A stretch of DNA of 52,789 bases from Candidatus Levyibacteriota bacterium (GTDB lineage: Bacteria > Patescibacteriota > Microgenomatia > Levybacterales > UBA12049). Made by a program: the position numbers and the translations under genes. Location: assembly GCA_027459725.1 (NCBI GenBank), contig DAIDHK010000008.1, positions 1-52,789 of the forward strand. Reading direction: 5' to 3'. Below are positions 1 through 47,647 of the stretch, one piece after another (the stretch's first letter is position 1; every line of letters begins with the position of its first letter). The notes under the pieces were generated by a model that made no database searches, had not been told where the DNA came from, and saw only the letters and a list, made by a program, of their open reading frames with translations.

Positions 1-620
1 ATGATGGAGGCTTGGCTAAGGGAGATTTTGCCTGGACGCTCAATTTTGTGGATGTGAAAGTCCAATGGACTGAGCAAGTAGCAGTAAAAAGCAAAGCGCA
101 GCAATATGTATTTACAGGCATTAAAACAATTCGGGGAAGGTTACCCTTCCCCTTACTTGGATACGATTCTGACTCAGGATCAGAATTTATCAATGACCAA
201 TTATACCGCTATAGTATAGCCGAAAAGATAACCTTTACAAGAGGAAGACCTGGTAAGAAAAATGACAATGCTTTTATTGAAGAGAAAAATGATTCTGTAG
301 TTCGACGTTGGGTTGGATACGGCAGATATGACACACAAGAACAAGTGAATATGTTAAATGAACTTTATGATCTACTCAGAGTCTATACTAATTTTTTCCT
401 ACCAGTACAAAAACTTGTGAAAAAAGAGAGGATTGGGAGTAAAATCAAAAAAATACATGATAAAGCAAAGACTCCATATCAACGAATTATTGAATCAGAT
501 GATGTTACAAAAAAGGTAAAAGATAGATTGAGAACACACTACAAAACGTTAAACCTTGTGAAACTAAAAAAACAAATTGACGAAACTATCAAGCGTTTGA
601 AACCAACAAAGATTAGGTGA
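1..620 (+). CDS. DDE (integrase-core/rve-type) transposase, C-terminal portion; frame is open to the window edge
   Basis: ORF 12..620 has no in-frame stop back to base 3. It contains DSDSGSEFIN and NAFIEEKN, which resemble the second Asp and the Glu of DDE integrase-core transposases. Confidence 0.6.
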   Translation, partial: DGGLAKGDFAWTLNFVDVKVQWTEQVAVKSKAQQYVFTGIKTIRGRLPFPLLGYDSDSGSEFINDQLYRYSIAEKITFTRGRPGKKNDNAFIEEKNDSVVRRWVGYGRYDTQEQVNMLNELYDLLRVYTNFFLPVQKLVKKERIGSKIKKIHDKAKTPYQRIIESDDVTKKVKDRLRTHYKTLNLVKLKKQIDETIKRLKPTKIR

Positions 621-680: not shown

Positions 681-1322
681 TTAGTCACTTTGATGATCAT
701 AATAAGAATGTCTCTTACGTGCTTTTCTTTCGGCTTGAAGTGCATTTTGTTCAAATGTTGTAGTAGATATTCTACTGTATTGAATACTTAAGGTGTCAGC
801 TGCTGCAGCTGCCATAATACTTTGAATATTTTGTTCGGTTAAATATGAGTTTGGATCAAAAAACCCCCATTCATCTGGAGTCAAATTATGTGGTCCAAAT
901 TTAACTTTTTCTTCTGGATGCATTTCAAAAATAACGACATGACGCGAATGATCATCTTTTCTTCTATGCACTTCATAATATCCTCTTAAGTAAGTCTTTA
1001 TTCGGTCTGTCCCACCCATTTGTTTGTTTAATGCATATAAAGCAACATTATGACGATCCATATTACGCAAGATTCCACCATAGATTGGTTGATCTCCACG
1101 TGGTATCCCAAACATGACCGGTTGTGACGAATGAGGTAAGTATCTTAAGATAGGATATCCCTGATCTTCATCCACTGCATCTATAAACCGCACTCTCCGC
1201 AGGTCAGTAAATTCTCTATCACGGGAAAATGAGGGTAGAGATTGTGACACAACCAAGCCTCCTTCTGTAGTAGAAGATGTAGGACTGGTTATTCTAGATG
1301 GTGCTAATTCGGTTAATCCCAT
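681..1322 (-). CDS. hypothetical soluble protein, no family recognised; lies directly behind a Leu-codon leader attenuator
   Basis: ORF 681..1370. Its first 16 codons overlap a terminator hairpin, so the ATG at 1322 (MGLTELAPS...), right after the U-tract, is the likely start. Confidence 0.6.
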   Translation of the reverse strand: MGLTELAPSRITSPTSSTTEGGLVVSQSLPSFSRDREFTDLRRVRFIDAVDEDQGYPILRYLPHSSQPVMFGIPRGDQPIYGGILRNMDRHNVALYALNKQMGGTDRIKTYLRGYYEVHRRKDDHSRHVVIFEMHPEEKVKFGPHNLTPDEWGFFDPNSYLTEQNIQSIMAAAAADTLSIQYSRISTTTFEQNALQAERKARKRHSYYDHQSD

Positions 1323-1343
1323 AAAAAAACCCGCTTTCGCGGG
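1323..1343 (-). terminator. intrinsic terminator CCCGC-GAAA-GCGGG-U7 (attenuator terminator, copy 1)
   Basis: Minus strand reads CCCGCGAAAGCGGGTTTTTTT. The hairpin and T-run are identical to the element at 5040..5060. Confidence 0.75.
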
Positions 1344-1379
1344 ATGTGATTTTGTGTTCGTTGCACGCAATCTAACCCG

Positions 1380-1430
1380 CTAAAAACGGATAAGAAGGAG
1401 AGCAACTAATACTTGATTTAGATTTGTCAT
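1380..1430 (-). CDS. 16-codon leader peptide MTNLNQVLVALLLIRF (5 Leu, 2 Val, 1 Ile)
   Basis: ATG at 1430, TAG at 1382-1380. The stop overlaps the GCGGG arm (1380-1376) that can pair with the terminator 5' arm (1343-1339). Confidence 0.6.
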   Translation of the reverse strand: MTNLNQVLVALLLIRF

Positions 1431-1437
1431 AGATAGT

Positions 1438-1467
1438 ATTTTACAAAAAATTAGCATTATTTGTCAA
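1438..1467 (-). promoter_or_regulatory. sigma70-like promoter TTGACA-18-TG-TAAAAT for the Leu-leader transcript
   Basis: Minus strand has TTGACA (1467-1462, overlapping the ridA stop) and an extended -10 TGTAAAAT (1445-1438). The leader ATG lies 7 nt downstream. Confidence 0.5.
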
Positions 1468-1844
1468 TTTTTTTTATAAGCTACAACTTCAATTTCTACT
1501 AATGCGTTTTTGGGTAATTGTGAAATCTCAACAGTTGAGCGAGCAGGTTTGTGTTGGCTAAAAAACGATCCATAGATCTTATTTACTTTTGTAAAATCAT
1601 TCATATCTGTTAAGAAGATTGTAGTCTTACAGATAGTTTCTAAACTATAACCTAACTCTTCCAACAAAGATTGAATATTCTCCATTATTTGTTTGGTTTG
1701 GAGCTCAACCCCTGAGGCCAATTCCCCCGTCTTTAAATTTAGTCCTATCTGTCCTGAGCAATAGATAGTTCCATTTTCCAGCATTATAGCCTGTGAATAT
1801 GGTCCGATAGCCTGAGGAGCTTTATTAGTTTGAATTTGTTTCAT
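1464..1844 (-). CDS. ridA: RidA/YjgF/TdcF family reactive-intermediate (enamine/imine) deaminase
   Basis: 126 aa. APQAIGPYSQAI, GQIGLN..TGEL and C-terminal VEIEVVA are the family hallmarks. Confidence 0.9.
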   Translation of the reverse strand: MKQIQTNKAPQAIGPYSQAIMLENGTIYCSGQIGLNLKTGELASGVELQTKQIMENIQSLLEELGYSLETICKTTIFLTDMNDFTKVNKIYGSFFSQHKPARSTVEISQLPKNALVEIEVVAYKKN

Positions 1845-1851
1845 AGTTTAT

Positions 1852-3096
1852 TTATACCAGATATTGATAAAGCATATCATCCTGTCTCAATATTCTATAT
1901 TGTATACCAATCTTATTCATTCTACTAATTAGTGAATCATAGTCCTTTGCGTTTTGTAATTCAATTCCAACTAAAGCCGGACCCTTTTCCTTGTTCGTTT
2001 TCTTTATGTATTCAAATCTAACAATATCATCTGTTGGTCCTAATGCTTTGTCGACAAACTGTCGTAATTGGCCTGGTTTTTGAGCAAACTCTATAATAAA
2101 GTAATGTTTACGACCAAGGTAGATTAGACTTCTCTCCAAAATTTCAGGATAACGCAGTAAGTCATTGTTTCCACCACTCAAGATACAAACTACCGTTTTA
2201 CCTTTTATGTCGTCCTTTACTTTTTCTAATGTAGAGATACTTAATGCACCTGCAGGTTCGGCTATAATACCATCTTTTTGGTATAGCTCAATCATAGTCG
2301 TACAATCCATTCCTTCAGGGATTGTCACAATCTTTGATAAATATTTTTGACAAATGGCAAAAGTCATATTTCCTACAGTTTTTACGGCCGCACCATCGAC
2401 GAAAGTATCTATTGTTTCCAATGACACTACTGATCCGTTAGAGACTGAAGAATGCATACCTGCTGCACCTTTAGGTTCAGTACCAATGATAATAATCTTG
2501 GTGTTCTTTTGTTTAAGATAACTTGAGACACCAGATGTTAGTCCTCCGCCACCAATTGGGGATATAACCATATCAACTTTACCTGCTGTTTGTTCATAAA
2601 TTTCCTTGCCTACAGTTCCTTGTCCTGCAATAACTAATGGGTCATCGAAGGGATGAACATAGACCATATTGTTTTGTTTGGTGTATATTTTTGACTCTAT
2701 ACTGGCGTCATCAAACGTATCTCCAACCAGTTTGACTTCTACATACTTTTGACCAAACTGTTTGACTTTTTCAATTTTTTGGTTAGGTGTTACACGAGGC
2801 ATAAATATAACACCTTTAATTTTTTGTAAATAACAACTTAGAGCTACACCTTGTGCATGATTTCCTGCACTGGCGCACACAACACCTCTTTTTTGCTCTT
2901 CTGGTGTAAGGGAGGCTATCTTGTTGTATGCTCCCCGTATTTTAAATGAACGTACTTCCTGTAAATCTTCACGTTTTAGGTAAATATTAGCTTTATAAAG
3001 CTTTGAAAGGCGTTTTGAGTATTGCAAGGGTGTTTGCAGTACGATGTTTTGCAGAGTTTTTGCAGCCTCTTCAATTTGTTGTGTAGTTACTTTCAT
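1852..3096 (-). CDS. ilvA: threonine ammonia-lyase (biosynthetic threonine dehydratase) with one C-terminal ACT-like domain
   Basis: 414 aa. Has the PLP-lysine motif SFKIRGAYNK, plus GNHAQG and a GGGGL glycine loop. Overlaps ilvN by 4 nt. Confidence 0.9.
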   Translation of the reverse strand: MKVTTQQIEEAAKTLQNIVLQTPLQYSKRLSKLYKANIYLKREDLQEVRSFKIRGAYNKIASLTPEEQKRGVVCASAGNHAQGVALSCYLQKIKGVIFMPRVTPNQKIEKVKQFGQKYVEVKLVGDTFDDASIESKIYTKQNNMVYVHPFDDPLVIAGQGTVGKEIYEQTAGKVDMVISPIGGGGLTSGVSSYLKQKNTKIIIIGTEPKGAAGMHSSVSNGSVVSLETIDTFVDGAAVKTVGNMTFAICQKYLSKIVTIPEGMDCTTMIELYQKDGIIAEPAGALSISTLEKVKDDIKGKTVVCILSGGNNDLLRYPEILERSLIYLGRKHYFIIEFAQKPGQLRQFVDKALGPTDDIVRFEYIKKTNKEKGPALVGIELQNAKDYDSLISRMNKIGIQYRILRQDDMLYQYLV

Positions 3097-3332
3097 ATTA
3101 ATTGAACTTCCTCAACTTCATATATTTTTTCCATCTGTTTGCAAATTACCTGCAGATTTTTTTTCTCGGCAGAAATCTTTATCGTAAATTTTGCTTTTAG
3201 GTTTTTCTCTAAAGCTTTAACTTCTAAATAATCTACATTTATTTTTCTTCTGACAAACATACCAGCAATTCTATATAACACGCCAGGGGTATTAAGTGAA
3301 ATTATTGATATGGTATGCGTTGTGTTAGTCAT
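3093..3332 (-). CDS. ilvN: acetolactate synthase small (regulatory, ACT-domain) subunit
   Basis: 79 aa. HTISIISLNTPGVLYRIAGMFVRRKINV is ACT-domain-like. It lies immediately downstream of ilvB. Confidence 0.8.
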   Translation of the reverse strand: MTNTTHTISIISLNTPGVLYRIAGMFVRRKINVDYLEVKALEKNLKAKFTIKISAEKKNLQVICKQMEKIYEVEEVQLI

Positions 3333-3336
3333 AGCT

Positions 3337-5028
3337 TTAAGACAGTCTTATTTTATCCACGCTTGCACCAGTTGGTATCATAGGAAATACGTTAGTTTCT
3401 TTTATTACCTTTATTTCAAGTAAATAAGCGTTCTTACTTCTCCAGAGTTGTTGTAATGACTTTTTCAGTTCAGATTTTTTTATTACTTTTTTAGCTGAAA
3501 TATTGTATGCCTTAGCCAGTGTGACAAAATCAGGGCTGTCAATATTAACAAAAGAATATCTTTTTGTAAAAAATAATTCCTGCCATTGTCTTACCATGCC
3601 TAAATAATGATTATTCAGGATTACTACTTTGACTGGAATATTCTCTTGCATAATTGTTCCCAGTTCCTGTAACGTCATTTGGAAGCTACCATCTCCAATT
3701 ATTGCGATGACTTCTTTTTCCGGATGAGCTACTTTGACACCTATGGCGGCTGGTAAGGCAAAACCCATTGTACCTGCTCCTCCGGAGGTGATGAAGTGAT
3801 TTGGATATGTATGTTTATAGTAGCGAGCAGTAACCATCTGATGTTGTCCAACATCTGTTACAATGATGGCTTTGCCATTTGTTAATTCAGCTATTTGGTT
3901 TACTACCTCAGACATTGATAACCTATCATTCTCAGAAGGATGAATATCATGTTCGATAACTTGCTTATATTCTTGACTGTGTAGTTTGTGGAATTCTTCT
4001 TTCCAACTTGTATGGCTTTGTTTTTTGATTAAAGGAATCAGTTTCTCCAGAGCTATTTTAGCATCGGCTTGCAAGGATGTAGCTATCCCTACGTTTTTAT
4101 TAAATTCACTGGCGTCTATGTCGATATGAACTATCGTGGCTTGTCTGGCATAGGTTGAGGTGGTGCTTGTTACCCTGTCGTCAAAACGCATACCCAAAGC
4201 GATTATGACATCGGCTCTATTAGTAAGAACATTCGGGGCGTAATTGCCATGCATACCTAACATACCGGCATAATTAGGATGGTTAACGGGTATTGCAGTT
4301 AATCCATGTAATGTACATGCAACTGGTGCATCCATTTTCTCAACTAGCAACTTTAATTCCTTTTCTGCGTTGGCTATTAGAATTCCATGTCCGGCTAAGA
4401 TTAATGGTCTTTCAGCTTGATTTATTATACCTGCAATTTGTTTTAGTAATTTTTTATCTAGTTTTAAATGCGACTGTTTATCCTTTGTTTTTTTAACTGA
4501 TATATAATCACAGATATTTAGTTGTACATCTTTGGTAATATCAATAACGATTGGTCCGGGTCTACCTGAATTAGCAATTTTAAAAGCTTTATGCATTACT
4601 TCACTGATCTCTTCCCCCTTGGTAATCTGGTAGTTCCATTTTGTGATGGGAGTTGTAATGCCGATAACATCTACTTCCTGAAAAGCATCGCTGCCGACTA
4701 GATGAGATGCAACTTGTCCTGTTATACAGACCAGTGGCACTGAATCAAGCATAGCGTCGGCTATTCCTGTCACTAAGTTTGTTGCCCCGGGTCCTGAAGT
4801 GGCAAAACACACACCTGTTTTACCGCTAGTTCGAGCATACCCTTCAGCAGCATGTGCTGCCCCCTGTTCATGTCTAACCAAAACATGCCTTACTTTGTCT
4901 TTATAATCATACAACGCATCATAGATAGGCATTATCGCTCCTCCTGGATAGCCAAAAATAGTATCCACGTTTTCTGCAATTAATGACTCCATGACGGCGT
5001 TGGCGCCAGTTATTTTTTTACCTCTCAT
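3337..5028 (-). CDS. ilvB: acetolactate synthase large (catalytic, ThDP-dependent) subunit
   Basis: Has GYPGGAI, GPGATN and GDGSFQM..NN (ThDP motif). The ORF extends to 5082, but codons 1-18 cover the leader terminator, so ATG 5028 (MRGKKITGANAV...) is the preferred start. Confidence 0.9.
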   Translation of the reverse strand: MRGKKITGANAVMESLIAENVDTIFGYPGGAIMPIYDALYDYKDKVRHVLVRHEQGAAHAAEGYARTSGKTGVCFATSGPGATNLVTGIADAMLDSVPLVCITGQVASHLVGSDAFQEVDVIGITTPITKWNYQITKGEEISEVMHKAFKIANSGRPGPIVIDITKDVQLNICDYISVKKTKDKQSHLKLDKKLLKQIAGIINQAERPLILAGHGILIANAEKELKLLVEKMDAPVACTLHGLTAIPVNHPNYAGMLGMHGNYAPNVLTNRADVIIALGMRFDDRVTSTTSTYARQATIVHIDIDASEFNKNVGIATSLQADAKIALEKLIPLIKKQSHTSWKEEFHKLHSQEYKQVIEHDIHPSENDRLSMSEVVNQIAELTNGKAIIVTDVGQHQMVTARYYKHTYPNHFITSGGAGTMGFALPAAIGVKVAHPEKEVIAIIGDGSFQMTLQELGTIMQENIPVKVVILNNHYLGMVRQWQELFFTKRYSFVNIDSPDFVTLAKAYNISAKKVIKKSELKKSLQQLWRSKNAYLLEIKVIKETNVFPMIPTGASVDKIRLS

Positions 5029-5039
5029 ATTTTTCTCAT

Positions 5040-5060
5040 AAAAAAACCCGCTTTCGCGGG
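5040..5060 (-). terminator. intrinsic terminator CCCGC-GAAA-GCGGG-U7 (attenuator terminator, copy 2, ilv leader)
   Basis: Same hairpin and T-run as at 1323..1343. It lies 12 nt upstream of the ilvB ATG. Confidence 0.75.
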
Positions 5061-5096
5061 GTATTTGTTTGTTTTGCTCCACACAAATACGCCGCT

Positions 5097-5144
5097 TTAA
5101 CGGGTAATAATGAGAGCAACAATAATGTTTTGATTTCTTAACAT
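5097..5144 (-). CDS. 15-codon ilv leader peptide MLRNQNIIVALIITR (4 Ile, 1 Val, 2 Leu, 1 Thr)
   Basis: These are the last 15 codons of ORF 5097..5315. ATG at 5144, TAA at 5099-5097, followed by antiterminator and terminator alternatives. Confidence 0.65.
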   Translation of the reverse strand: MLRNQNIIVALIITR

Positions 5145-5150
5145 GAAAAT

Positions 5151-5180
5151 ATTATAGACTTTCTCAACACAGAAAAGCAA
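5151..5180 (-). promoter_or_regulatory. sigma70-like promoter TTGCTT-18-TATAAT for the ilv leader
   Basis: Minus strand has TTGCTT (5180-5175) and TATAAT (5156-5151). The leader-peptide ATG starts 6 nt after the -10. Confidence 0.5.
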
Positions 5181-5190
5181 GCATCTGTTT

Positions 5191-5871
5191 TTAGCCTGCT
5201 TGTGTAGCCACATTGCGGTCATGGTGCAATAAGAAGGTGGTACCCTCTTTCTTAGCTCTTTGCCAGAAACCATTTTTCTTCTTGCCTTTAATTGCTGCCT
5301 GCCACGCCCCTGCATCTTCTACTTTCATGCGTGCTTGTCGAATAACAGTCAGTACCCACTGGAAAAAACTAACATGATATTTACCTGGATTCTTAGGAGC
5401 CTGAGACATACTAACTTGACTGAATTCCACCTGCAGCATGCTAGAAGAAGAGACCAGTTTTTGTAATTCCATCTGAATTTCTTGAATTGATTGCCTGAGC
5501 TCTGCTTTTTCTTTTGCATGCATCCGTGATTCAACAGTAGCAATTTCACGGTTATAGTCCATCCCCGGTGCGACTTCTTGTTTGTGGGTGGTTTCTTTAA
5601 CTATCTGCTCATTCTGGCCAAACAAAAAGTCACCCCAAGAACTGTCTTTTTTAACAGTCACTTTGCTTTTGCCCAGATGCAATTCTTGTCCTGGTTTTAA
5701 ATCACCTGATTGTGCTTGGGAGGTGAACTCTCCTGAGCCTATAATCTGATCTAAGAAGCCCTTGCTCCACTGTTTAGTTTCTTCGCTTAAGCCGCGTAAT
5801 ATCGAATCGGAAGCTCTTTCTTCCAATTCTAGTGGATTTTTTACCTGATTAGTATGTTTTTTTGAAGCCAT
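5191..5871 (-). CDS. hypothetical protein
   Basis: 226-aa ORF with a coiled-coil-like middle and a basic C-terminus. No family recognised with confidence. Confidence 0.6.
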   Translation of the reverse strand: MASKKHTNQVKNPLELEERASDSILRGLSEETKQWSKGFLDQIIGSGEFTSQAQSGDLKPGQELHLGKSKVTVKKDSSWGDFLFGQNEQIVKETTHKQEVAPGMDYNREIATVESRMHAKEKAELRQSIQEIQMELQKLVSSSSMLQVEFSQVSMSQAPKNPGKYHVSFFQWVLTVIRQARMKVEDAGAWQAAIKGKKKNGFWQRAKKEGTTFLLHHDRNVATQAG

Positions 5872-5887
5872 GATAAGGCCGAGAGTA

Positions 5888-6736
5888 TCATATATTTTTC
5901 AAAAAATCAAGCGTCTTTTGTTGTCTAAGAATACTAGCAAGCATATAGCGATTTTGCTCTAAATAAGTTTTCTCTTCAGGCGATTTAGCTTTGTTGATCG
6001 CTTCTTCTAGTTCTTTGTCTTCTACGGTAATATTTTCATCTTCAGATATCTTTTGCAGTACCAATTCTACCTTGATGTCATTTTCTGCCTTTAGGGTATA
6101 TTCCTGTTTGAGCGTCTCAGGAGTTTTTTTAGTTGAAGACAAATATTGCTCAAGAGTTAAGCCTAGTCGCTTTATTTCATCTAGAGTTTGAGCTAAAAAT
6201 CGATCTACCTCTTGTTCAACCAGCATTTGCGGAATTCTAACTTTAGCTTCTTTAGTCACAATCTCCATCATTTCATCAAAGCTTGGTTCTTTTTGTTCTT
6301 TGCCCGGCACTACAATCTTGCTCTTTGCCGTAAGACTTTTGATCTTATCTTTGTAATCTCCTAATCTCACCTCAGGCATTTCACAGGTAGTAGCCTTGAA
6401 GACCCATGGTTGACCGCTTTCAAGTTTATCAACGTGAATTTGTGGGTTAGCCATAGGCCGGATATCGTGCTCACGCACAGCTTCGCTGTACGCAGCTGGC
6501 AAGAGGTCTCGTAGTGTTTCTTCCTGAAGCTTCTGTGGATCTGTATGCTCTAGAACGACCTTCTTAGGAGCTTTCCCTGGCCGGAAGCCTTGTATATTGG
6601 CACGCTGTACTAATCGATCTATAACTGAATCCTGAGCCTTTTGGACAGTATTCCAAGGGATTTCCACGGTCAATACTATATTACCACTATCTTCCCTTTT
6701 TATTATTGATTTTTTCTCTGTTTTTTTTTCAGTCAT
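5888..6736 (-). CDS. tig: trigger factor, short form lacking the PPIase domain
   Basis: N-terminal ribosome-binding signature GFRPGKAP and a C-terminal-domain-like region. Only 282 aa, against about 430 aa for canonical Tig. Confidence 0.75.
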   Translation of the reverse strand: MTEKKTEKKSIIKREDSGNIVLTVEIPWNTVQKAQDSVIDRLVQRANIQGFRPGKAPKKVVLEHTDPQKLQEETLRDLLPAAYSEAVREHDIRPMANPQIHVDKLESGQPWVFKATTCEMPEVRLGDYKDKIKSLTAKSKIVVPGKEQKEPSFDEMMEIVTKEAKVRIPQMLVEQEVDRFLAQTLDEIKRLGLTLEQYLSSTKKTPETLKQEYTLKAENDIKVELVLQKISEDENITVEDKELEEAINKAKSPEEKTYLEQNRYMLASILRQQKTLDFLKNI

Positions 6737-8407: not shown

Positions 8408-10009
8408 TTAGATGTAAATTGCTGATAAAATCTGATGCGGATGTGGTGAAATGGTATACACGCAGTGTTCAGGACGCTGTGCCGTAAGGCATGGAGGTTC
8501 AAGTCCTCTCATCCGCACACCTGTTGACTTGGAAGGCGCAATGCTAGCGATTATCTCAAAGGGACGACCTAATCGTTGGTTTGAAAAGTCCTTTCCGTCA
8601 AAGGTTACTCCATCTGGGAAAATTAGCCTCTGATATTTTACCCTTGCTTCAGGAAGGGCGTCATACCAAACTAAATGAGGGGTTTGAATAAATGCGTATG
8701 CATAATTGAGCAGGGCGTCAATATCCAGCTCCTCTGAATGTAATTCTGTTAAACCAATTTTTGCCAGTGTTATCTTTTGTTCGATCTCTTTCAATTGTTT
8801 CTCAAGAAGATTGTCTGGAATAATTCCCTTGCTACCTTTTTGCACAAGCCACTCTTGTTGCTGTTGTAATTCCTTAATATCATCCATTTTTCTCAGGTAA
8901 TCACCATTTATTTCTTGCAACCTCTCTTGATACCTTACACGAAAAACCTTATCAAAAAAGTCAATAAATTTTTGTTTGCCTCGATGGTGACGAAGATACT
9001 CAAAAAAATAATCCTCAAAGTCTTTTTTGGAGATCGTTTTTGAATACATTTTACAGCCTTTGTTATGGCAATAATACTTGGCATACATTCCACCATTTCC
9101 TTTTGTCCAACCTGCTGTCAGAGGTTCTCTACAAAACTTGCACATTGCAAATCTTCTGAGTGTAAAATCAGGATTATCATAAAGTCGTTTATTTATTTTG
9201 TGTCCTGTATTATGAAGAATAGCCTGACATTTTTCCCATAAAGCAATTGTGATAAGTGGCTTTTGTTTTCCCTGAATAATCTTCCCTTCCTGTGTCATGA
9301 GTAATCCTGCATAAAAACGGTTATTGAGAATTTTGTTGATGTATTGTTTGGAAAATTTTATTGTAAAACCTCTGTAATCTTTGAGTTTTCTTTTTCCCAT
9401 CAAAGAACCAAGTTGCGTTTGTGTATATGCACCAGTGCTAAAAAACGTAAAAATGTCAATTACCGATTGGTAACAATTTTCATCCCATTCGTGAGGAGAA
9501 AGTTTTGTGCCAAGCACTTTTACTCTTTTGTATCCTGTGGGAGGTTGCCATGGCCACAAGCCTTCTTCCACACGTCTCCAAATGGCTATTTTTATTCTTT
9601 CTTTACGAACTGCATTGTCATACTCATTTACAGCTGCTAGGACGCCTTCTACAAGTCTTCCTGATGGTGTCTCATCTATTCTCTCAGTTGCAGAACGTAA
9701 GATGATTTGTAGGCGAAGCAATTGTCCTCTGAGCCAATGGTGTTGTTCTTGTGAGCGAGCAAATCTATCCAATTTGAATACAACCAGCACATCAAACTTT
9801 CCCTCGTTACGTTTAGCAAAGTCCAGGAGTTCTGCTACCCGTTTCTCGTTCGTTTCTTTTGCTGAAACAGCTTCATTTTTCATGATATCAACAACTTCAT
9901 ACCCTTCTGTTTCACAGTAGGAACGACAAATCTTTTCCTGTGTATCAAGACTTGTGTTGTCAATTTGTTTATCACTACTGATGCGTAAATAAATAATTGC
10001 CTTTTTCAT
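8408..10009 (-). CDS. large serine recombinase (resolvase/invertase N-domain, recombinase domain, zinc-ribbon)
   Basis: AIIYLRISSDKQ (catalytic Ser), VVFKLDRFARS and the Cys cluster CKFC...CHNKGC. The last ~35 codons are the antisense of tRNA-Leu(CAG). Confidence 0.85.
   Translation of the reverse strand: MKKAIIYLRISSDKQIDNTSLDTQEKICRSYCETEGYEVVDIMKNEAVSAKETNEKRVAELLDFAKRNEGKFDVLVVFKLDRFARSQEQHHWLRGQLLRLQIILRSATERIDETPSGRLVEGVLAAVNEYDNAVRKERIKIAIWRRVEEGLWPWQPPTGYKRVKVLGTKLSPHEWDENCYQSVIDIFTFFSTGAYTQTQLGSLMGKRKLKDYRGFTIKFSKQYINKILNNRFYAGLLMTQEGKIIQGKQKPLITIALWEKCQAILHNTGHKINKRLYDNPDFTLRRFAMCKFCREPLTAGWTKGNGGMYAKYYCHNKGCKMYSKTISKKDFEDYFFEYLRHHRGKQKFIDFFDKVFRVRYQERLQEINGDYLRKMDDIKELQQQQEWLVQKGSKGIIPDNLLEKQLKEIEQKITLAKIGLTELHSEELDIDALLNYAYAFIQTPHLVWYDALPEARVKYQRLIFPDGVTFDGKDFSNQRLGRPFEIIASIAPSKSTGVRMRGLEPPCLTAQRPEHCVYTISPHPHQILSAIYI
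8437..8517 (+). tRNA. tRNA-Leu (anticodon CAG), type II
   Basis: Hand-folded: GCGGATG acceptor, anticodon loop TTCAGGA, variable arm TGCCGTAAGGCAT, T-arm GGAGG-TTCAAGT-CCTCT. No encoded CCA. Confidence 0.9.
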
Positions 10010-12192: not shown

Positions 12193-12373
12193 TAACAATT
12201 TATTTGCCTACAACCCTCTGGTAATGCAGGGGGCATGGCATAAAGACCTGTTAGACCCAGTAAGCTCTTGTGGAGCGTCTAACAGGCTGTATATCGAAAG
12301 GTATGCAGGCGGAGCAATCCGTCGCCACAGGAGCTTTTTGTATGCTCTTGCTGGCACGAAAGGCGGTGAGAAC
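12193..12373 (+). promoter_or_regulatory. long GC-enriched structured 5' leader (candidate cis-regulatory RNA) of 12374..12859
   Basis: Putative promoter TTCAAA-17-TATAAT (-10 at 12181-12186). 10-bp stem CCTGTTAGAC (12247-12256) / GTCTAACAGG (12277-12286) with nested GCTC/GAGC. Second hairpin GGCG (12308-12311) / CGCC (12323-12326). SD-like GGCGGTGA precedes the ATG. Confidence 0.45.
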
Positions 12374-12859
12374 ATGAAAATAACAAAAACAGCAGAAGAA
12401 CAAAACAAAGATATAGTCAAAGGCGGTATTCTTTTTGGCGTTATATTTATTCTTGTTTCACTATGGCTATTTGCATCCCATCATTCATTCTTTGGAGAAA
12501 TGTTTTTAGGAGCAGGAATTCTCTTACCATTACTGATGCTTTCTCGTTATTCAACAGCAGCTGCTAAAACAAGTGGTGTGGTTCTTGGAATTGGCATAGG
12601 GGGCATTCTAGTTGTTCTCGGCATCATTTGTTTCCAAATTCCAGTTATTGGTTGGATACTCGGAATACTTTTTATTCTTTTTGGTATTGTTACTCCATTT
12701 GGTGGATTAAAACTCAATGCCACCAGTTTCCAGAGAATACAAGGAGATTGTCCAAGATGCGGAAATAAACTGATAGCACATAAAACAGATAAAGCGCTTA
12801 CCTGTAAGATATGTCAGAGGAGAGTGTTGGTAACTGAGAAGGGATTTGAATTGGCATAA
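12374..12859 (+). CDS. membrane protein (about 4 TM) with C-terminal zinc-ribbon CPRCG...CKIC
   Basis: ORF 12224..12859 trimmed to MKITKTAEEQ..., which follows an SD-like sequence. The upstream part of the ORF covers the structured leader. Confidence 0.6.
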   Translation: MKITKTAEEQNKDIVKGGILFGVIFILVSLWLFASHHSFFGEMFLGAGILLPLLMLSRYSTAAAKTSGVVLGIGIGGILVVLGIICFQIPVIGWILGILFILFGIVTPFGGLKLNATSFQRIQGDCPRCGNKLIAHKTDKALTCKICQRRVLVTEKGFELA

Positions 12860-16297: not shown

Positions 16298-16800
16298 AAA
16301 CAATTCTTTACATGGCTACTACCGTCAATGGGTATATTGCCAGACCAGACGACTCTACTCCCTGGTCTGATGAAGAATGGAATGCGTATGCTGAGATGGT
16401 AAAAAGAGTTGGGAATATCATCATTGGGCGTAAAACCTATGAGATTATGAAAGATGGGGAATTTGACAGAATTGGTAACCCCTTTGTTATTGTTATTACC
16501 CAGCAAAAAGAGAATGAAACTATTCCAAATGTAGTATTTGTCAAAACTCCCGAAGAAGCACTAAAAATTGCAGAAGAAAAAGAATATACAGAAACAATGG
16601 TGAATGGCGGTAGCACCATTATTGATTTATTTGCTCAAAAGAAGCTCTTTGATGAAATTTACCTTGACGTCGAGCCTTTCGTTTTTGGGAATGGTAAACC
16701 ACTTTTTCTTCCAAGTAATTTGGAGTTACAACTTTCTTTGGAAGAAATAAAAAAGATTGGTAATAATTCTTTTCAGGTACACTATAAAGTTTTGAAATAA
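16294..16800 (+). CDS. dihydrofolate reductase-like (RibD C-terminal domain) family protein
   Basis: ILYMATTVNGYIARPDD...IIGRKTYE...GGSTI. Overlaps the previous gene by 4 nt. Confidence 0.7.
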   Translation: MKTILYMATTVNGYIARPDDSTPWSDEEWNAYAEMVKRVGNIIIGRKTYEIMKDGEFDRIGNPFVIVITQQKENETIPNVVFVKTPEEALKIAEEKEYTETMVNGGSTIIDLFAQKKLFDEIYLDVEPFVFGNGKPLFLPSNLELQLSLEEIKKIGNNSFQVHYKVLK

Positions 16801-19442: not shown

Positions 19443-19841
19443 ATGTGTGGATTGAGTTTTAGAGATTTAATACCAGATGTTTATTTTGCTGATTTTCTCA
19501 GAGGACATTTAGATGGCGATGGTTATAAGACCACATATTGGGATAAAAGATGGAAAAATAGTTATATGCTTTATATAGGTTTTGTATCTGCTAGTAAGAT
19601 TCATTTAGAATGGATTAAAGGAAAAATAAGTGCACTATTTCAAGTTGAAGGTAAAATTAAATATGCAGGTAAGTCGGTATATCAATTAGTCTACGCTAAA
19701 TATGCCTCCATTAAGCTATTACAAATACTCTACTATTCAAGTGGTAATGTATGTCTGTCGCGTAAAAGGTTTAAAATTGAGTGCAGTTTCGCTATAATAT
19801 CCTTGAGCCGGGATGCTGAAATGGTAGACAGGCATGCTTGA
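19443..19841 (+). pseudogene. LAGLIDADG homing-endonuclease remnant (single-motif, truncated)
   Basis: FADFLRGHLDGDGY matches a LAGLIDADG motif. Only ~130 aa from the internal Met, and the ORF tail runs into tRNA-Leu(GAG). Confidence 0.5.
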
Positions 19842-21409
19842 GGTGCATGTGCCAGCAATGGTGTGGAGGTTCGAGTCCTCTTCCCGGCACTAGAGGGGAC
19901 TGTTTGTCCCGAATAGTACTGAATAGCTTGATATATCGGGCTAATTGAATGGTTCAATGTGCCATTATAGTCCCAAGCCAATCCTTCAGGGAACATTGAA
20001 CCTAAGAGCACTTTAGCCTGGGTTAGATTAGATCTTTTGTATGCTTCCCACAAGTCGGCAAGAATAGTTTTCATAAAAGAAGTTACTTCATCTATATTGT
20101 ATTTATCGAAAGTTGTGTCATCTTTTGCTATCTGTGCCTTTGTCATTTCACTTTCAATCATGGTATTCTGCTCCTTAAATATTTCATCAGAATAGATTCC
20201 AGCAAGGTTTTTCTGTACAAGCTGTTTTCTTATGGCTTGAAGTCTAGCAATTTCATCGTCTGCGCTATTTTTAATGTTTAATAACCTCGATTGTCTAGCA
20301 TAATAGGCTTCATATAGAGCGTTCATAAACAGTTTGAGACATTCTTCCTTAGGCGTGGTTTCTTTTAGTACACGTTTTAGTGCATCTTCGAGATCAATTA
20401 CCTTGATGGATTTACTATTGCATGGAGCACCACAGCGATAGTAAGCATATTTGCCACCATGGCCTTTAGTCATTCCCCCAGTTAGTCCTTTGCCACATTT
20501 TGCGCATTTTATAACTCTTCGCAGAGGCAAGATTGGATTATCATGATTTCTGTGAGCTAAGGCGACTTGATTAACATTTCTTCCATCTAAGATCGCTTGG
20601 ACTTTATAATATTGTTGCTCCGTAATCATGGGAACAAGTTGTCCCCTAACTTCCTGCTTATAGGTTTTCGAAGAAAGTATTCCCATATAGAATTTATTTC
20701 TAAAGAGTTTGTTCACTCTCTGAAGGCATAGAGTATATTCTTTTGTGCCTTGCCTTGCCCTTAATCCCCACTCATTCATAATATCTGCCATTTCACGAAG
20801 GCTTTTTGTTCCCGTTGCCATTAAGTCCCATGCTTCTTTCATTTTGTTCCATGTTTTGGGATCTTTAACTGCATACCCTGCTTCTACTTTGTACCCAAGA
20901 GGTGCTTGTCCTGTAACGATCATTCCTGCCATAAACCTGGCTTTTAGACCGTTTCTGGCTCTCTCGCTGCGAATATCATTATCAAGCTGAGCAAATCCAG
21001 CAAGTATTGTTTCAACAAGCTTTTCTGTAGGCGAATCCCCTGTAGGTTCTGTAGCGGATATTATATTAACGCCATTTTCAACCAACTTTTTTCGTATAGC
21101 TAAATAGTCAGCGGTTATCCTTGAAATTCTATCAAGCCTGTATACAAATACTGCTTGAAATTTATTTTTGTTCTTTCGGGAATACTCCAAAAGATTAATA
21201 AGTACTGGCCTTCCGGTAATAGTTTTAGCGGATCGTCCCTCTTCTCGGAAAACTTCAATTACCTCAAATCCTTTCTTTTCAGCTTCCCTCCTACAAATTT
21301 CTTCCTGAGTGTCGAGTGAAAAATTATCAACCTGCTCTTCTGTAGAGACACGAAGGTATAAAACTGCTTTTTGACCATCATCATATATAGTTGGTTTTTG
21401 TAGTTTCAT
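19733..21409 (-). CDS. large serine recombinase (paralog of 8408..10009)
   Basis: AVLYLRVSTEEQ (catalytic Ser), VYRLDRISR and the Cys cluster CAKCGK...YYRCGAPC. The C-terminal ~50 codons are antisense to tRNA-Leu(GAG) and its upstream flank. Confidence 0.85.
   Translation of the reverse strand: MKLQKPTIYDDGQKAVLYLRVSTEEQVDNFSLDTQEEICRREAEKKGFEVIEVFREEGRSAKTITGRPVLINLLEYSRKNKNKFQAVFVYRLDRISRITADYLAIRKKLVENGVNIISATEPTGDSPTEKLVETILAGFAQLDNDIRSERARNGLKARFMAGMIVTGQAPLGYKVEAGYAVKDPKTWNKMKEAWDLMATGTKSLREMADIMNEWGLRARQGTKEYTLCLQRVNKLFRNKFYMGILSSKTYKQEVRGQLVPMITEQQYYKVQAILDGRNVNQVALAHRNHDNPILPLRRVIKCAKCGKGLTGGMTKGHGGKYAYYRCGAPCNSKSIKVIDLEDALKRVLKETTPKEECLKLFMNALYEAYYARQSRLLNIKNSADDEIARLQAIRKQLVQKNLAGIYSDEIFKEQNTMIESEMTKAQIAKDDTTFDKYNIDEVTSFMKTILADLWEAYKRSNLTQAKVLLGSMFPEGLAWDYNGTLNHSISPIYQAIQYYSGQTVPSSAGKRTRTSTPLLAHAPQACLSTISASRLKDIIAKLHSILNLLRDRHTLPLE
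19807..19889 (+). tRNA. tRNA-Leu (anticodon GAG), type II
   Basis: Hand-folded: GCCGGGA acceptor, anticodon stem CATGC/GCATG, loop TTGAGGT, long variable arm, T-arm GGAGG-TTCGAGT-CCTCT. Confidence 0.9.
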
Positions 21410-21884: not shown

Positions 21885-24575
21885 GTGATATACTCATTGC
21901 GTTCCTGCCCTAATAATATGGATGTTCAGAAGTATAGGGCAGATTATTTGATAGGAAATCTCTTCCACAACTTTTCTTTTACAACAGTACTATTTTCTCT
22001 TTCTCCTCTGTTTTCTCATGTGCTGGCTATTTTTATTGCTTTAGCTGCTATCACCATCATTATTGTCATTTTACGAGTTGTTGTTTCCTCTATTCTTTAT
22101 CTTCTTGAGAAGTCAGTGTTTTTGGAGATAACTCCACCTGCCTTTACACAAAAGACAGCATACACAACACAGCAGTTATTCTCAGTTCTTCATACAATTG
22201 GTAGTCAGAGAACTGTCTTTGAACGATTAGTTGGGAAAAAGGTTATATTCTCCTTTGAAATTGTTTCCACAAGAGAAGAAGGTATCCGATATATAGTCAG
22301 AACAACGTTAGATCAGGTACAGACGATAGAGCAAATATTGTTATCCTACCTTCCTCAGGTAAAAGTAAAACAAATTGACGAATATTTGCCCTCTCAAATA
22401 AAGGAAAAGTCTAAAGTCATTGAATTTCGGTTAGCAAGACATTACGCATATCCTCTGGCAAAACAAGATTTACTTAACGAGCATGATCCAGTGGCATATA
22501 TAACAGGTATGATGACAAAACTAAAACCAGGTGAACTGATTGCGCTACAAATTGTTGTTTCTCCCGTCAAGCCAAAGGAAGTAGCCATGATTTCTCAAAA
22601 AATATTACACAATGAACATGTCCTTCGTTTTCTGGATAGCCCGCGTTTTCCTTGGTATACACAACCAATTATTATGATTTTTAGTCTTTTTGGTAAAGTT
22701 TTCCAATTTGTTGGGTGGATTATTAATGACTTTTCTTTAACCAGAGAGGATCGTTTAGCACAACGGCAGATGACATATTTTAACCAAATGACCGCAAGTC
22801 ATATAAAACCTGCAAGAACGTTAAGTACATTCGAACAAGAAGCTGTAACTGCAATACAAGCAAAAATAGCACAACCGCTATTTGAAACAACTATTCGTGT
22901 ACTAATTTTGGTTAAGAATAAAAGCGAACAAGCTGAAAGAGTACGAGGAATAACAGCGTCTTTTTCTCCATTTACCGTACCAGGTTATCAGTCGCTACGG
23001 AAACTTATCAATATTTCGTTTCTAAAGACTCTGAGAGAGTTTCCTTTTCAGAGACGACAGTTATCTTTTCTATCAAATAGAACTGATTCTCTTCTTTCTT
23101 CTTCTGAACTCGCAGACTTATATCATTTTCCCTTTATGCAGGTAACTCAGACAGAAAATATTGTGAAAGTATATAGTAAAGAATTGCCTGCTCCTCTTTC
23201 ACTAAAAAAGGATACAAAAAACTTGGATATTATTTTTGCCAAAAACACCTATGGAGAGCAAGACACAATGATTGGATTGACTCAAGAAGAACGAAGACGA
23301 CATATGTATATCATTGGAGCAACTGGAACTGGAAAATCAACTCTGATTCTTTCAATGGTAAATCAAGATTTACAGCATGGAAAAGGTATTGGAGTTATTG
23401 ATCCTCATGGAGAATTAGCAGAAACAATTTTAAATTTAATTCCAGAAGATAGAAAAGATGATCTTGTCTATGTGAATCCTGATGATTTGCAATATCCAGT
23501 GGGTATTAATCTTATGGAATTAACGCCTGGTCTTTCAGAAGAAGATAGTCTTCGGGAAAAAGAATTTATTGCAGAAAGTGTTATTTCTCTTTTTAGAAAA
23601 GTCTTTGCCAGTGATATGAAAGGAAATCCGCATAGAATTGAATATATCCTTCGTAACACAATACATACTGCCTTTACTGTAGAAAATCCTACCCTTTTTA
23701 CCATATTTGATCTTTTGAATAATCCGGTGTTTCAGAAAAAGGTTGTCGCAAAGTTACGGGATGAAAACTTAAAGAATTTCTGGAAATATGAATTCGGAAA
23801 AGCTGGAGATTATCAGAAAGTAAAAATGGTCTCACCTGTCACTGCAAGAATTGGACGATTCCTTTTCTCGCCAAGCGCTAAAAGAATTCTTGAGCAAACA
23901 AAATCAACGATTAATTTTGACGAAATCTTAAATGGGAAAATTCTTCTATGCAATCTGGCGAAAGGAAAGCTAGGAGAAGACACCTCTCAAGTATTGGGAA
24001 TTATGATCTTAAACAAGCTCCAATTGGCTGCATTAAAACGCGCGAGAATAGAAGCTTCTGAAAGAAAAGATTTTTATCTATATGTAGATGAATTTCAACA
24101 CTTTGCTACAAGAAGCTTTGTAGAAATGCTTTCAGAGTCCAGAAAATATAAATTAAATCTGACCATTGCAGAACAATCAACCTCTCAACAAGACGATAGA
24201 GATTTAGTAAATATAATTCTGGCTAATGTGGGAACTGTTGCATGTTTTAAAACCGCAAACCCACAAGATGAAAAACTAATGCTTCCTCAATTTGAGCCGT
24301 ACGTTGTTCAAGGAGAAATTTATAACCTTCCTGCGTTTCATTTCTATATGAAAATTTCTGCACTTAATCCTGAAGAACCATTTTCAGGAGAAACAATGCT
24401 TATAAATGGAGAAAAAGACAAAGATAAGATTCAAAAATTTATTGAAGCCTCTCGTACTAACTATGCACACAAATATGAAACAAAAGCTCAAGTAGTTGAT
24501 GATGAAAAAACAAACGAAGAAGAAAATACTCCTATACCTTCTGTCCCAAAAGGGAAATTTCCTAAAAGAAAATAA
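21885..24575 (+). CDS. type IV coupling protein-like ATPase (VirD4/TraD/TcpA-like, FtsK/HerA superfamily) with N-terminal TM region
   Basis: Walker A GATGTGKST and Walker B-like LYVDEFQHF. N-terminal hydrophobic segments. The ORF starts at GTG 21885; an alternative ATG is at 21918. Confidence 0.7.
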   Translation: MIYSLRSCPNNMDVQKYRADYLIGNLFHNFSFTTVLFSLSPLFSHVLAIFIALAAITIIIVILRVVVSSILYLLEKSVFLEITPPAFTQKTAYTTQQLFSVLHTIGSQRTVFERLVGKKVIFSFEIVSTREEGIRYIVRTTLDQVQTIEQILLSYLPQVKVKQIDEYLPSQIKEKSKVIEFRLARHYAYPLAKQDLLNEHDPVAYITGMMTKLKPGELIALQIVVSPVKPKEVAMISQKILHNEHVLRFLDSPRFPWYTQPIIMIFSLFGKVFQFVGWIINDFSLTREDRLAQRQMTYFNQMTASHIKPARTLSTFEQEAVTAIQAKIAQPLFETTIRVLILVKNKSEQAERVRGITASFSPFTVPGYQSLRKLINISFLKTLREFPFQRRQLSFLSNRTDSLLSSSELADLYHFPFMQVTQTENIVKVYSKELPAPLSLKKDTKNLDIIFAKNTYGEQDTMIGLTQEERRRHMYIIGATGTGKSTLILSMVNQDLQHGKGIGVIDPHGELAETILNLIPEDRKDDLVYVNPDDLQYPVGINLMELTPGLSEEDSLREKEFIAESVISLFRKVFASDMKGNPHRIEYILRNTIHTAFTVENPTLFTIFDLLNNPVFQKKVVAKLRDENLKNFWKYEFGKAGDYQKVKMVSPVTARIGRFLFSPSAKRILEQTKSTINFDEILNGKILLCNLAKGKLGEDTSQVLGIMILNKLQLAALKRARIEASERKDFYLYVDEFQHFATRSFVEMLSESRKYKLNLTIAEQSTSQQDDRDLVNIILANVGTVACFKTANPQDEKLMLPQFEPYVVQGEIYNLPAFHFYMKISALNPEEPFSGETMLINGEKDKDKIQKFIEASRTNYAHKYETKAQVVDDEKTNEEENTPIPSVPKGKFPKRK

Positions 24576-47055: not shown

Positions 47056-47647
47056 GGTTTCCAGTAGACGTCAAATGCAAATAAAGGAAGTCAAAGATGA
47101 TATTCTTGTGCTTCCTAATAATGAGTATCGACTTATCGTTGAAACATCATCAGTAAATTTTGAATTGAAAAGTGAAGTCGAACAAGATGTCTTAATTGAT
47201 AGTTTTCAGAATTTCCTTAATTCCCTCTCAACACCAATTCAAATCCTGATTCGTGTCCGGGAAGTGGACATTGACCACTACGTTGAGCAAATCAGTAAAA
47301 GCAAGGTAACTGAGAAAGAAAAAGTCTACAAAGAACAGATTGATAATTATTGTGAGTTTATTGAAGAACTTGTATCGGGAAATAAAATCCTCTCAAGGAA
47401 ATTTTATGTTGTTATTCCCTATCATCACACAGGATCAAATAAAGATTTTCAACTTATTAAAGAACAATTATATGTTAGTCGGGATATTGTTATGCGAGGT
47501 ATGGAAAAACTTGGCATGAAAGTGCGAACGTTGGATAGTTTGGAAGTTCTTAATCTTTTCTATAGCTTTTACAATCCAAGCCAAGTGAAGACACAAGAAT
47601 TGAAAGCAGAGACAGTCAAAGCAATTTTTCAACAAGCATATGTTTAA
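47027..47647 (+). CDS. VirB4/PrgJ N-terminal-domain-like protein (separate ORF; alternative start 47075)
   Basis: QIKEVKDDILVLPNNEYRLIVETSSVNFELKSE..Q resembles the N-terminal domain of Gram-positive VirB4 ATPases. Overlaps the next ORF by 8 nt. Confidence 0.55.
   Translation: MWLLHKSKNKVSSRRQMQIKEVKDDILVLPNNEYRLIVETSSVNFELKSEVEQDVLIDSFQNFLNSLSTPIQILIRVREVDIDHYVEQISKSKVTEKEKVYKEQIDNYCEFIEELVSGNKILSRKFYVVIPYHHTGSNKDFQLIKEQLYVSRDIVMRGMEKLGMKVRTLDSLEVLNLFYSFYNPSQVKTQELKAETVKAIFQQAYV

Follow-up and report, generated by a model that had tools for sequence, protein, structure and literature searches.

The minus strand of a 52,789-nucleotide (nt) stretch of DNA from a Candidatus Levyibacteriota bacterium (contig DAIDHK010000008.1, positions 1 to 52,789; here called the window) carries at 1467-1323 a compact leader, leader 2, located between ridA, the last gene of an ilv operon, and an orphan gene (ORFan). 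By sequence, leader 2 is a homologue, and within the genome a paralog, of the leader which precedes ilvB 3.7 kb upstream; the likeness is not a matter of chance. Leader 2 probably is a functional ribosome-mediated leader-peptide transcription attenuator. Judged by the position of its leucine codons, we lean towards leucine as the amino acid to which it is mainly tuned. The evidence consists of the sequence elements of the leader, its homology to the ilvB leader, its conservation at orthologous loci and the covariation of its alternative helices. Those features of the attenuator class which can be read from sequence and folding are present: clustered codons, a terminator, an exclusive antiterminator, a helix between regions 1 and 2, and a fitting ribosome geometry.

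Leader 2 and its likeness to the ilv leader

Leader 2 starts with a promoter composed of a -35 hexamer TTGACA (1462..1467) and a -10 hexamer TAAAAT (1438..1443) with an 18-nt spacer. It matches 11 of 12 consensus positions and is the best promoter match in the first 7 kb; the -35 hexamer is found in the same place in L001, L030, L031 and L038, the relatives introduced below. The stop codon of ridA (TGA, 1466-1464) falls within this -35 hexamer. Seven nt downstream of the -10 hexamer an ATG at 1430 opens leader open reading frame (ORF) 2, 16 codons plus UAG (1380..1430), which encodes MTNLNQVLVALLLIRF (all leader peptides are written up to the stop codon). The peptide contains five Leu, including a run of three, two Val and one Ile. 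No Shine-Dalgarno motif is present ahead of the mini-ORF ATG. The presumed regulatory codons 11-13, CUC CUU CUU, are at 1392..1400.

Four RNA regions can be distinguished. Region 1 (GUUGC...AUCCGUU, 1385..1406), the 5' strand of the anti-antiterminator, lies within the 3' half of the leader ORF and spans roughly its last eight codons. Region 2 (AGCGGGU...GCAAC, 1360..1381) may pair either with region 1 or, via GCGGG and GAUU, with region 3. Its core GCGGG shares bases with the UAG stop and repeats the 3' arm of the terminator exactly. Regions 3 (AAUC...CCCGC) and 4, delineated by terminator scan and folding, occupy 1330..1351. They comprise the intrinsic terminator CCCGCGAAAGCGGG (1343-1330, from the terminator scan) with the hairpin CCCGC-GAAA-GCGGG, which is followed by a U7 tract (1323..1329). 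The ATG of the ORFan, a gene for 213 amino acids (aa) at 681..1322 on the same strand, comes directly after it. A preliminary description of this DNA had placed the leader ORF at 1430-1380 with its ATG about 7 nt past the -10, and had named the pairing blocks GCGGG (1380-1376), GAUU (1372-1369), AAUC (1351-1348) and CCCGC (1343-1339); all of these are where it put them. It was right, too, in seeing a second leader copy before the gene 681..1322, yet the copy measures 108 nt from the ATG to the end of the U-tract, not about 95. The hexamers and the spacer of its promoter stand as well; the extended -10 motif TGn does not, because TG abuts TAAAAT directly.

The ilv leader (5040..5180, minus strand) is built from equivalent parts: -35 TTGCTT (5180-5175), -10 TATAAT (5156-5151), an ORF for MLRNQNIIVALIITR (5144-5097) upstream of ilvB, the terminator CCCGCGAAAGCGGG (5060-5047) and U7 (5046-5040). 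A 24-nt cassette, CCCGCGAAAGCGGGTTTTTTTATG, has exactly two copies in the window, 1343-1320 and 5060-5037, where none is expected (100 shuffles); among the direct-repeat families of the window, the one which it leads ranks second (D2, the longest, 42 nt). The identity of terminator, U-tract and following ATG claimed earlier is thus real, with the amendment that the ATG of the ilv copy at 5039 is not the start of ilvB. When both copies are aligned, as had been proposed, column identity is 76% across 220 columns, the ORF core GTTGCTCTC-NTT-NTT-ANC-CGT included. A profile from type-1 leaders (those before ilvB) outside of the window finds the ilv copy (5140-5040) at E=1.5e-20 and the 1418-1323 copy at E=3.7e-5. 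The corresponding type-2 profile (leaders after ridA), again without the window, finds 1430-1324 at E=8.7e-27 and the ilv leader at E=1.4e-12. With a profile of the whole family, the two copies are the only matches in the window at E<=10. By profile homology both leaders are members of an ilv-type leader family of Levyibacteriota/Microgenomates which we define here. It is at just the regulatory positions that the copies differ: where the ilv copy reads CTC ATT ATT ACC (L I I T; the first three are CUC AUU AUU, Leu-Ile-Ile, in the RNA), leader 2 has CTC CTT CTT ATC (L L L I).

Orthologous loci were compared in five genomes: the window, L001, L030, L038/L040 and L031. Further relatives were retrieved via IlvB homologues and a metagenome pattern scan. 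The nearest relative found, L001, is contig DAIDHL010000003.1 from a Candidatus Levyibacteriota metagenome-assembled genome (Candidate Phyla Radiation, CPR, or Patescibacteria). It is collinear with window 8290-680 and has both leaders, MIRNQNVIIALIITR before ilvB and MINRTQVVVALLLIRS after ridA. L030 (IlvB 72% identical) has MLCKQTIIALIITR and M(TM)MTEYKVIVALLLIRS in these positions, and L038/L040 has MFEKLQNNSIIALIILR and MRNRTLQSIIALLLIR. In L031 (IlvB 66%) MHLTISQSILVLIILR precedes ilvB, and the leader after ridA, MQKVVSLTLNLLLNRS..., is much more diverged and has a CCTCCC/GGGAGG terminator. L-I-I is present at the critical codons of all five ilvB leaders (IIVALIITR, VIIALIITR, TIIALIITR, SIIALIILR, SILVLIILR), and L-L-L in all five leaders after ridA (VLVALLLIRF, VVVALLLIRS, VIVALLLIRS, SIIALLLIR, LTLNLLLNRS). 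This bears out the switch of regulatory codons from Ile to Leu which the preliminary description had proposed; within the window clade it is ATT ATT to CTT CTT. The N-terminal part of the type-2 ORF varies freely; reading frame, LLL run and promoter are kept. The ORF has 15-18 codons in four of the five genomes; in L031 it has 25, and region 2 lies inside of it.

One could object that the resemblance is accidental, or that a terminator cassette was recently copied without a shared leader. The identical 24-nt cassette is, after all, the most conspicuous part of the likeness. This explanation is exceedingly improbable and indeed refuted by the data: the likeness runs through ORF core and region 2, and profiles made without the window find both copies. 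The mini-ORF is conserved at the orthologous loci, so more than a terminator cassette was duplicated. In L001 the two terminators differ from each other (CCCCGCCAAGCGGGG vs CCCGCGAAAGCGGG), yet both leaders persist. Exchange between the copies is a different matter. In the window the ilv leader has a terminator of type 2 (CCCGC-GAAA-GCGGG, 5040-5060), where its orthologs have CCCCGC-NAA-GCGGGG (L001:6256-6282), and leader 2 of L038 carries a type-1-like spacer. Within the window clade the two leaders are also alike at the nucleotide level. All this hints that the leader was duplicated or that one copy in a genome converted the other.

Alternative helices, stalling geometry and the sensed amino acid

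Three overlapping, mutually exclusive helices are possible in each leader, as seen by minimum free energy and per-sequence folding. In leader 2 the 1:2 anti-antiterminator has -18.0 kcal/mol, and an equivalent helix is found in the other leaders. The antiterminator, GCGGG:CCCGC plus GAUU:AAUC, has -13.0 kcal/mol with 5/5 arm bases paired; the terminator has -9.1 kcal/mol. Thus, the antiterminator drawn by eye in the preliminary description is recovered by folding, and it tracks the terminator across 21 leaders. Nine different terminator stems occur among these 21: GCGGG, GCGGGG, GGCGG, GGCGGG, CGGCGGG, GGGAGG, GGGAGA, AGGGAGA and AGCGGGA. Of the 19 leaders first tabulated, 17 carry a copy matching their 3' arm close to the stop codon; counted from the first base of this codon, the copy starts at +2 to +11 nt (+2 in leader 2). 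The antiterminator duplex of regions 2 and 3 beats composition-matched shuffles in 18/21 leaders with a median z of -2.7 (leader 2: -11.4 kcal/mol, z -2.4), and it is at least as stable as the terminator in all 21. A terminator stem and a stop-adjacent arm copy which vary together are, at the level of sequence, the signature of an antiterminator, and they constitute the strongest comparative evidence available.

The last Leu codon of leader 2 starts 14 nt before region 2. Given the well-known size of the ribosome footprint, a ribosome stalled at codons 11-13 would therefore leave region 2 free, and a ribosome at the stop codon would sit on it. This predicted geometry fits classical attenuation. 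We envisage the following sequence of events. A sigma-70-type promoter would start the transcript at, or within a few nt of, the leader AUG, giving a leaderless mRNA. With ample Leu-tRNA the ribosome would reach the UAG and cover region 2, or region 1 would re-pair with region 2 behind it; CCCGC-GAAA-GCGGG plus U7 could then form and transcription would stop at about 1323. When charged tRNA-Leu is scarce the ribosome would stall on codons 11-13 (CUC CUU CUU), masking region 1 and leaving region 2 free. Region 2 would then take the terminator's 5' arm as its partner (GCGGG:CCCGC plus GAUU:AAUC), and the polymerase would read through into the ORFan. The window sequence has no terminator between ridA and leader 2; the leader-2 hairpin therefore probably also ends the transcripts of the ilv operon, and the then internal mini-ORF would be poorly translated on those.

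Which amino acid is sensed deserves separate consideration. Leader 2 might be a general attenuator for branched-chain amino acids, in which stalling at any Val, Leu or Ile codon between positions 7 and 14 suffices and leader 2 differs from the ilv copy only in degree. The type-2 orthologs have V-V-V or V-I-V ahead of A-L-L-L-I, and ilvB leaders of more distant genomes combine I, V and L without restriction. We consider this explanation unlikely. A ribosome would have to stall at three particular codons to mask region 1 and spare region 2. These are invariably LLL in type-2 leaders and LII in type-1 leaders, and the positions upstream of them vary (V/L/I/S). According to the fold, stalling farther upstream would leave an inner hairpin, AUCCGUU/AGCGGGU, free to form.

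Several points weigh against leader 2 as a leucine-tuned attenuator. What is said of the transcription start, of a terminated RNA of about 108 nt, of mini-ORF translation, of ribosome stalling and of a leucine response is all inferred. The peptide holds Val and Ile codons besides Leu (2 Val, 5 Leu, 1 Ile), and the specificity may be broader. Nor are the CUU and CUC of the leader rare among Leu codons (CUU accounts for 31% of them); a rare-codon hypothesis was discarded, as the leader uses common Leu and Ile codons. The regulatory codons lie inside region 1, and their conservation within the close clade could be partly structural. RNAalifold on the joint alignment returns three terminator pairs only. 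MAFFT alignments place the helices of type 1 and type 2 in different registers and thus provide no formal single-alignment test of covariation; therefore, the evidence for covariation is per sequence, and nhmmer profiles and per-sequence folds were used, not a covariance model. Finally, the genes downstream of type-2 leaders are unrelated between lineages and none has a known link to leucine, which is unusual for a biosynthetic attenuator.

The short distance between promoter and start codon is a general property. The interval from the -10 hexamer to the ATG is 6-9 nt in 10/10 leaders of the close group (6-7 nt in most close relatives) and in most of the distant ones, with 9-12 nt in some of the latter. 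For leader 2, an ATG 7 nt past the -10 suggests a leaderless or near-leaderless transcript. Shine-Dalgarno-like motifs were seen in only 3 of 25 window genes inspected, and several ATGs of the window (e.g., 6736, 15818, 26782, 18087) are located 6-9 nt past -10-like hexamers. Going by these signals, most mRNAs of this Levyibacteriota genome may be leaderless. As to the other end of the leader, 13 of the 19 leaders tabulated have an ATG immediately after the T-tract. This ATG either starts the structural gene or opens a tiny ORF which ends at, or overlaps, the real start; such ORFs in the leaders of the window, L001, L030, L031 and L038 are MRKI, MTKI, MERR, MVKF, MV and, in L031, one of 20 codons. 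From this arrangement we suspect that translational coupling begins right at the terminator. In some relatives the 3' arm of the terminator, GGGAGG, is located 7 nt before the ATG which follows the U-tract. A role of this arm as a sequestered Shine-Dalgarno sequence is attractive for GGGAGG-type terminators; it is not relied on because the genome hardly uses such motifs.

Downstream genes, the wider family and the surroundings

The ORFan has a single homologue among 5.8 billion proteins, the 214-aa product of L001 (79% identity; 79-80% at the aa level), and no further relative at HMMER depth among 1.84 billion cluster representatives. With a ratio of nonsynonymous to synonymous substitutions (dN/dS) of 0.12 against the L001 ortholog it is a real gene under purifying selection. 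It has no match in Pfam or NCBIfam even at E<=10. A sequence match in the PDB to DC-SIGNR (E 0.15) is weak, probably spurious, and was discarded. The AlphaFold (AF2) model has a confidence score (pLDDT) of 45, and Foldseek against the PDB gives nothing below E 0.05. The type-2 leader is followed by an 81-aa ORF in L038 (L038:5626-5871), a 57-aa ORF in L031 (L031:4053-4226), and a different gene again in L030, a fragment at which the contig ends. All-against-all BLASTP detects no similarity among the ORFan product, the 81-aa and 57-aa proteins, the L030 fragment and a 645-aa protein of L032 described below.

Might the terminated RNA of about 108 nt, or the 16-aa peptide, be the functional product, acting in trans with the downstream gene incidental? 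The leader is conserved and the downstream genes are not, and the trpL attenuator of Sinorhizobium (rnTrpL/peTrpL) serves as a precedent. We regard this as very improbable. No complementarity to a target was found, and no search for it was made. Conservation of the C-terminal part of the peptide is explained by the RNA pairing of region 1. Purifying selection on the ORFan and its start right after the U-tract suggest a coupled unit.

The ilv operon between both leaders (1464..5039, minus strand) consists of the four-codon mini-ORF MRKI (5039-5025), ilvB (5028-3337), ilvN (3332-3093), ilvA (3096-1852) and ridA (1844-1464). The true start of ilvB is ATG 5028, the start called at the orthologous locus of L001 (ATG at L001 6294); ATG 5039, located after the U-tract, opens MRKI. 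An ATGA at 5028-5025 joins the two, the TGA of the mini-ORF overlapping the ATG of ilvB. A mechanical ORF call (3337-5082, minus strand) begins at GTG 5082 and spans the terminator; automatic annotation of ilvB is likely 5'-extended and hides the leader. The ilvN product has 79 aa and comprises an ACT domain only, without ALS_ss_C. The reduced operon ilvB-ilvN(truncated)-ilvA-ridA is present in the window, L030, L031, L033 and L038, its cluster lacking ilvC, ilvD, ilvE and leu genes; these genes are found in the clusters of other Levyibacteriota (L034-L037, L042). On the 5' side the ilv leader has as neighbours a short trigger factor gene, tig, and a DUF5660 gene (window 5191-6736, minus strand). 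The trigger factor consists of its N- and C-domains only, about 280 aa, without the peptidyl-prolyl isomerase domain, and the same pair is located directly upstream of the ilv leader in L001, L032, L034 and L036.

In more distant Microgenomates leader ORFs precede ilvB or ilvE-ilvB (L032-L037, L042): MNFRNSNIVSIIVTP in L032, MKQNASIVLVVILTP in L033, MNRLLSLTNVVVLLIEG in L034, MQNYLLSLFGIVLVEAC in L035, (V)KQFCILTVVLIDLA in L036, MLRKSLILLAVLISQV in L037 (Daviesbacteria) and MNRLFSQIIVVLITH in L042. Complete ilv-leu clusters carry a second, internal promoter with a Leu-rich leader: MKVTCFQTDLLLALN before leuA in L034, which contains DLLLALN, and MKTNQNILLTIDLLLTEI in L036, which contains IDLLLTEI and precedes a leuA-like gene of the citramalate-synthase type. 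A further Leu-rich leader of L032, MYSKTRSLLVLLLNR with SLLVLLLNR, precedes the gene of the uncharacterized 645-aa protein mentioned above and an M20 peptidase gene. The LLL run recurs where nucleotide sequence and terminator are quite different (L031_2, L032_0, L034_2 and L036_2), which argues that codon identity is selected and that RNA pairing alone does not account for it.

The most economical history would begin with an ilv-leu cluster in the Levyibacteriota ancestor, in which one leader stood before ilvB and a Leu leader before leuA, as is still the case in L034 and L036. Where the operon was reduced, a Leu-type leader would have persisted at the 3' end of the cluster, and it now would drive lineage-specific genes. 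Leader 2 might also be a relic, retained mainly as terminator of the ilv operon and as constitutive promoter of the next gene, the mini-ORF being a non-regulating leftover of an ancestral leuA leader or of a duplication. The leu genes are absent from the cluster in the window clade, and in relatives leuA is preceded by a Leu leader; what lies downstream differs from lineage to lineage, and no terminator separates ridA from leader 2. We nevertheless consider a relic improbable: its ORF would decay, whereas frame, start, the spacing between stop and region 2, LLL, promoter and all three helices are kept in five genomes, and this despite saturated synonymous sites in the genes flanking the leaders.

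In L001 a generic scan for short ORFs which have a terminator behind them and, at their stop codon, a copy of its 3' arm uncovered a third paralog at 16536-16637 (plus strand) with the Thr-rich peptide MCKLLNIFMTGTTTSV. Three of its four Thr codons are consecutive (codons 12-14), adjoining the position of LLL in leader 2 (codons 11-13). Its parts (L001:16500-16640) are TTGACA-17-TAGCAT, an ATG 9 nt on, and CGGGG...CCCCGC-AAA-GCGGGG-U7-ATG. The 3' half matches the type-1 profile at E=1.7e-6, although the Thr leader was absent from the profile input. It precedes a 79-aa ORF (L001:16667-16906) and thrS-infC-rpmI-rplT, and was found in one genome only; in L041, the next relative, no leader is present in the 113 nt available upstream of thrS, nor before pheS. 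As judged from its sequence, the Thr leader is a candidate Thr-sensing attenuator of the threonyl-tRNA synthetase gene. A Thr paralog of like architecture indicates that the scaffold was reused with different sensor codons. The small family of amino-acid-sensing leaders surmised in the preliminary description thus exists in the lineage in Ile/branched-chain, Leu and Thr types, and its question whether copies carry other amino-acid-rich mini-ORFs is answered by a Leu-rich one before leuA and a Thr-rich one before thrS. Pattern scanning of genome collections was less rewarding: 26 of 28 loci were chance seed matches. The two Tolypothrix matches, with slightly better scores, are located inside a protein-kinase gene and were rejected, as was the metagenome match L039, a chance match.

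The proteins encoded after Leu-type leaders contain 7.0% (681-1322), 1.2% (L038), 1.8% (L031) and 6.0% (L032:2719-4656) leucine, compared with 10.2% in long ORFs of the window, a comparison made post hoc with the window as background for all genomes. In numbers, there is one Leu in 81 aa, one in 57 aa, and no Thr in the 79-aa protein after the Thr leader. The genes after the Ile-type leader show no comparable shortage of Ile. A scarcity of the sensed amino acid in the proteins under control would fit a response to starvation. Presently, we can only offer as a tentative and rather doubtful proposal that in Levyibacteriota one compact leaderless scaffold was reused with swapped codons, Ile for ilvBN-ilvA-ridA, Leu for leuA or ORFans and Thr for thrS, that in the window clade the Leu sensor was retained after the leu genes left the cluster and now drives fast-evolving orphan proteins, and that the ORFans are leucine-starvation response genes of an organism thought to be host-dependent for nutrients. 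If so, there would be a sequence-only route to starvation regulons in uncultivated CPR bacteria.

Directly past the ORFan an IS3-family transposase fragment (12-620, plus strand; a weak NCBIfam match) is located, and then the contig ends. Synteny with L001 stops at this fragment, and an insertion may have removed whatever lay beyond the ORFan. On the other side, 8400-52789 of the window resembles an integrative or conjugative element, which is notable for a CPR genome. It has two large serine recombinases on the minus strand (8408-10009 and 19733-21409), each overlapping or abutting a tRNA-Leu gene (8437-8518, CAG, and 19807-19890, GAG), a VirD4/TraG-like ATPase (21885-24575), a VirB4/TraG P-loop ATPase (47640-49445) and a DUF4238 protein. 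A LOOT RNA (Rfam RF03000; 12205-12323, plus strand; 78.7 bits vs a gathering score of 46.4) sits within this region and overlaps the start of an ORF at 12224-12859.

Comparison with known attenuators

CPR bacteria (Patescibacteria) are known almost only from metagenomes, and little is documented on their gene regulation. A full-text literature search returned no paper which joins attenuation or leader peptides with Candidate Phyla Radiation or Patescibacteria. An Rfam scan of the whole window at gathering thresholds reports no family at either leader. Permissive scans of both leaders return sub-threshold matches only, to Leu, Trp and Phe leaders, all driven by the terminator: Leu_leader (RF00512) at 1323-1411 with 20.1 bits vs a gathering score of 50, Trp_leader (RF00513) with 20.1 and 21.3 vs 41, and Phe_leader (RF01859) with 19.3 vs 55. 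A conserved family of such attenuators would mean that CPR bacteria monitor how far individual tRNAs are charged and control transcription through the classical coupling to translation, on leaderless transcripts. The swapped codons of leader 2 offer a functional handle on an unannotatable ORFan and predict its induction under leucine limitation. Further, a search of CPR genomes for leaders of the Ile, Leu and Thr types could chart amino-acid-starvation regulons with no need to culture the organisms.

The logic is that of the enterobacterial leu, ilvGMEDA and ilvBN leaders, in which amino-acid specificity comes from stretches of Leu codons, or of Ile/Val/Leu codons, together with antiterminator and terminator hairpins which exclude each other. 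Leader 2 differs in that it is predicted to be leaderless, has no Shine-Dalgarno motif, and does not target leuABCD. The terminated RNA rnTrpL and the peptide peTrpL of the Sinorhizobium meliloti trpL attenuator are said to have functions of their own. This is of relevance because the gene downstream of leader 2 is not conserved; the comparison is a lead only. To our knowledge, a Thr-codon leader before thrS has not been described previously. Escherichia coli pheST has an attenuator. This and attenuators predicted in Actinobacteria, including those before trpS and leuS of Streptomyces (PMC1262725), are the precedent for the Thr leader of L001.

A Leu-rich attenuator peptide with experimental support is encoded upstream of ilvD in Staphylococcus aureus; it is reported to be cis-acting and to respond to leucine (PMC5794164). 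It shares with leader 2 the sensing by a Leu-rich mini-ORF in a branched-chain amino acid cluster outside of the proteobacteria, and differs in that it controls the biosynthetic operon itself, alongside CodY, and is unrelated in sequence (PMC5794164).

The closest known analogue is the leaderless ilvBNC attenuator of Corynebacterium glutamicum. There a 15-aa leader peptide rich in branched-chain amino acids, IlvL (MTIIRLVVVTARRLP), is encoded upstream of ilvB, transcription starts one nt from its start codon, a ribosome-binding site is absent, and a model with three hairpins, anti-antiterminator, antiterminator and terminator, was presented (PMC11857589). Likewise, the leaders of the window have peptides of 15-16 aa, an ATG 6-7 nt past the -10, no Shine-Dalgarno motif and three hairpins. 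In C. glutamicum the leader region has 292 nt, whereas in the window the ATG of the structural gene comes right after the U-tract, about 108 nt from the start. The sequences are not similar, the second, codon-swapped copy of the window precedes a non-biosynthetic ORFan, and the host is a CPR bacterium, not an actinobacterium. Mechanistically, the proposed process is textbook ribosome-mediated attenuation to which nothing new is added. What is new is a leader family not catalogued so far, a lineage apparently without an earlier description of such leaders, and an unusual, non-biosynthetic target. The CPR setting, the codon-swapped paralogs and the orphan targets together provide a testable entry into regulation in uncultivated bacteria.

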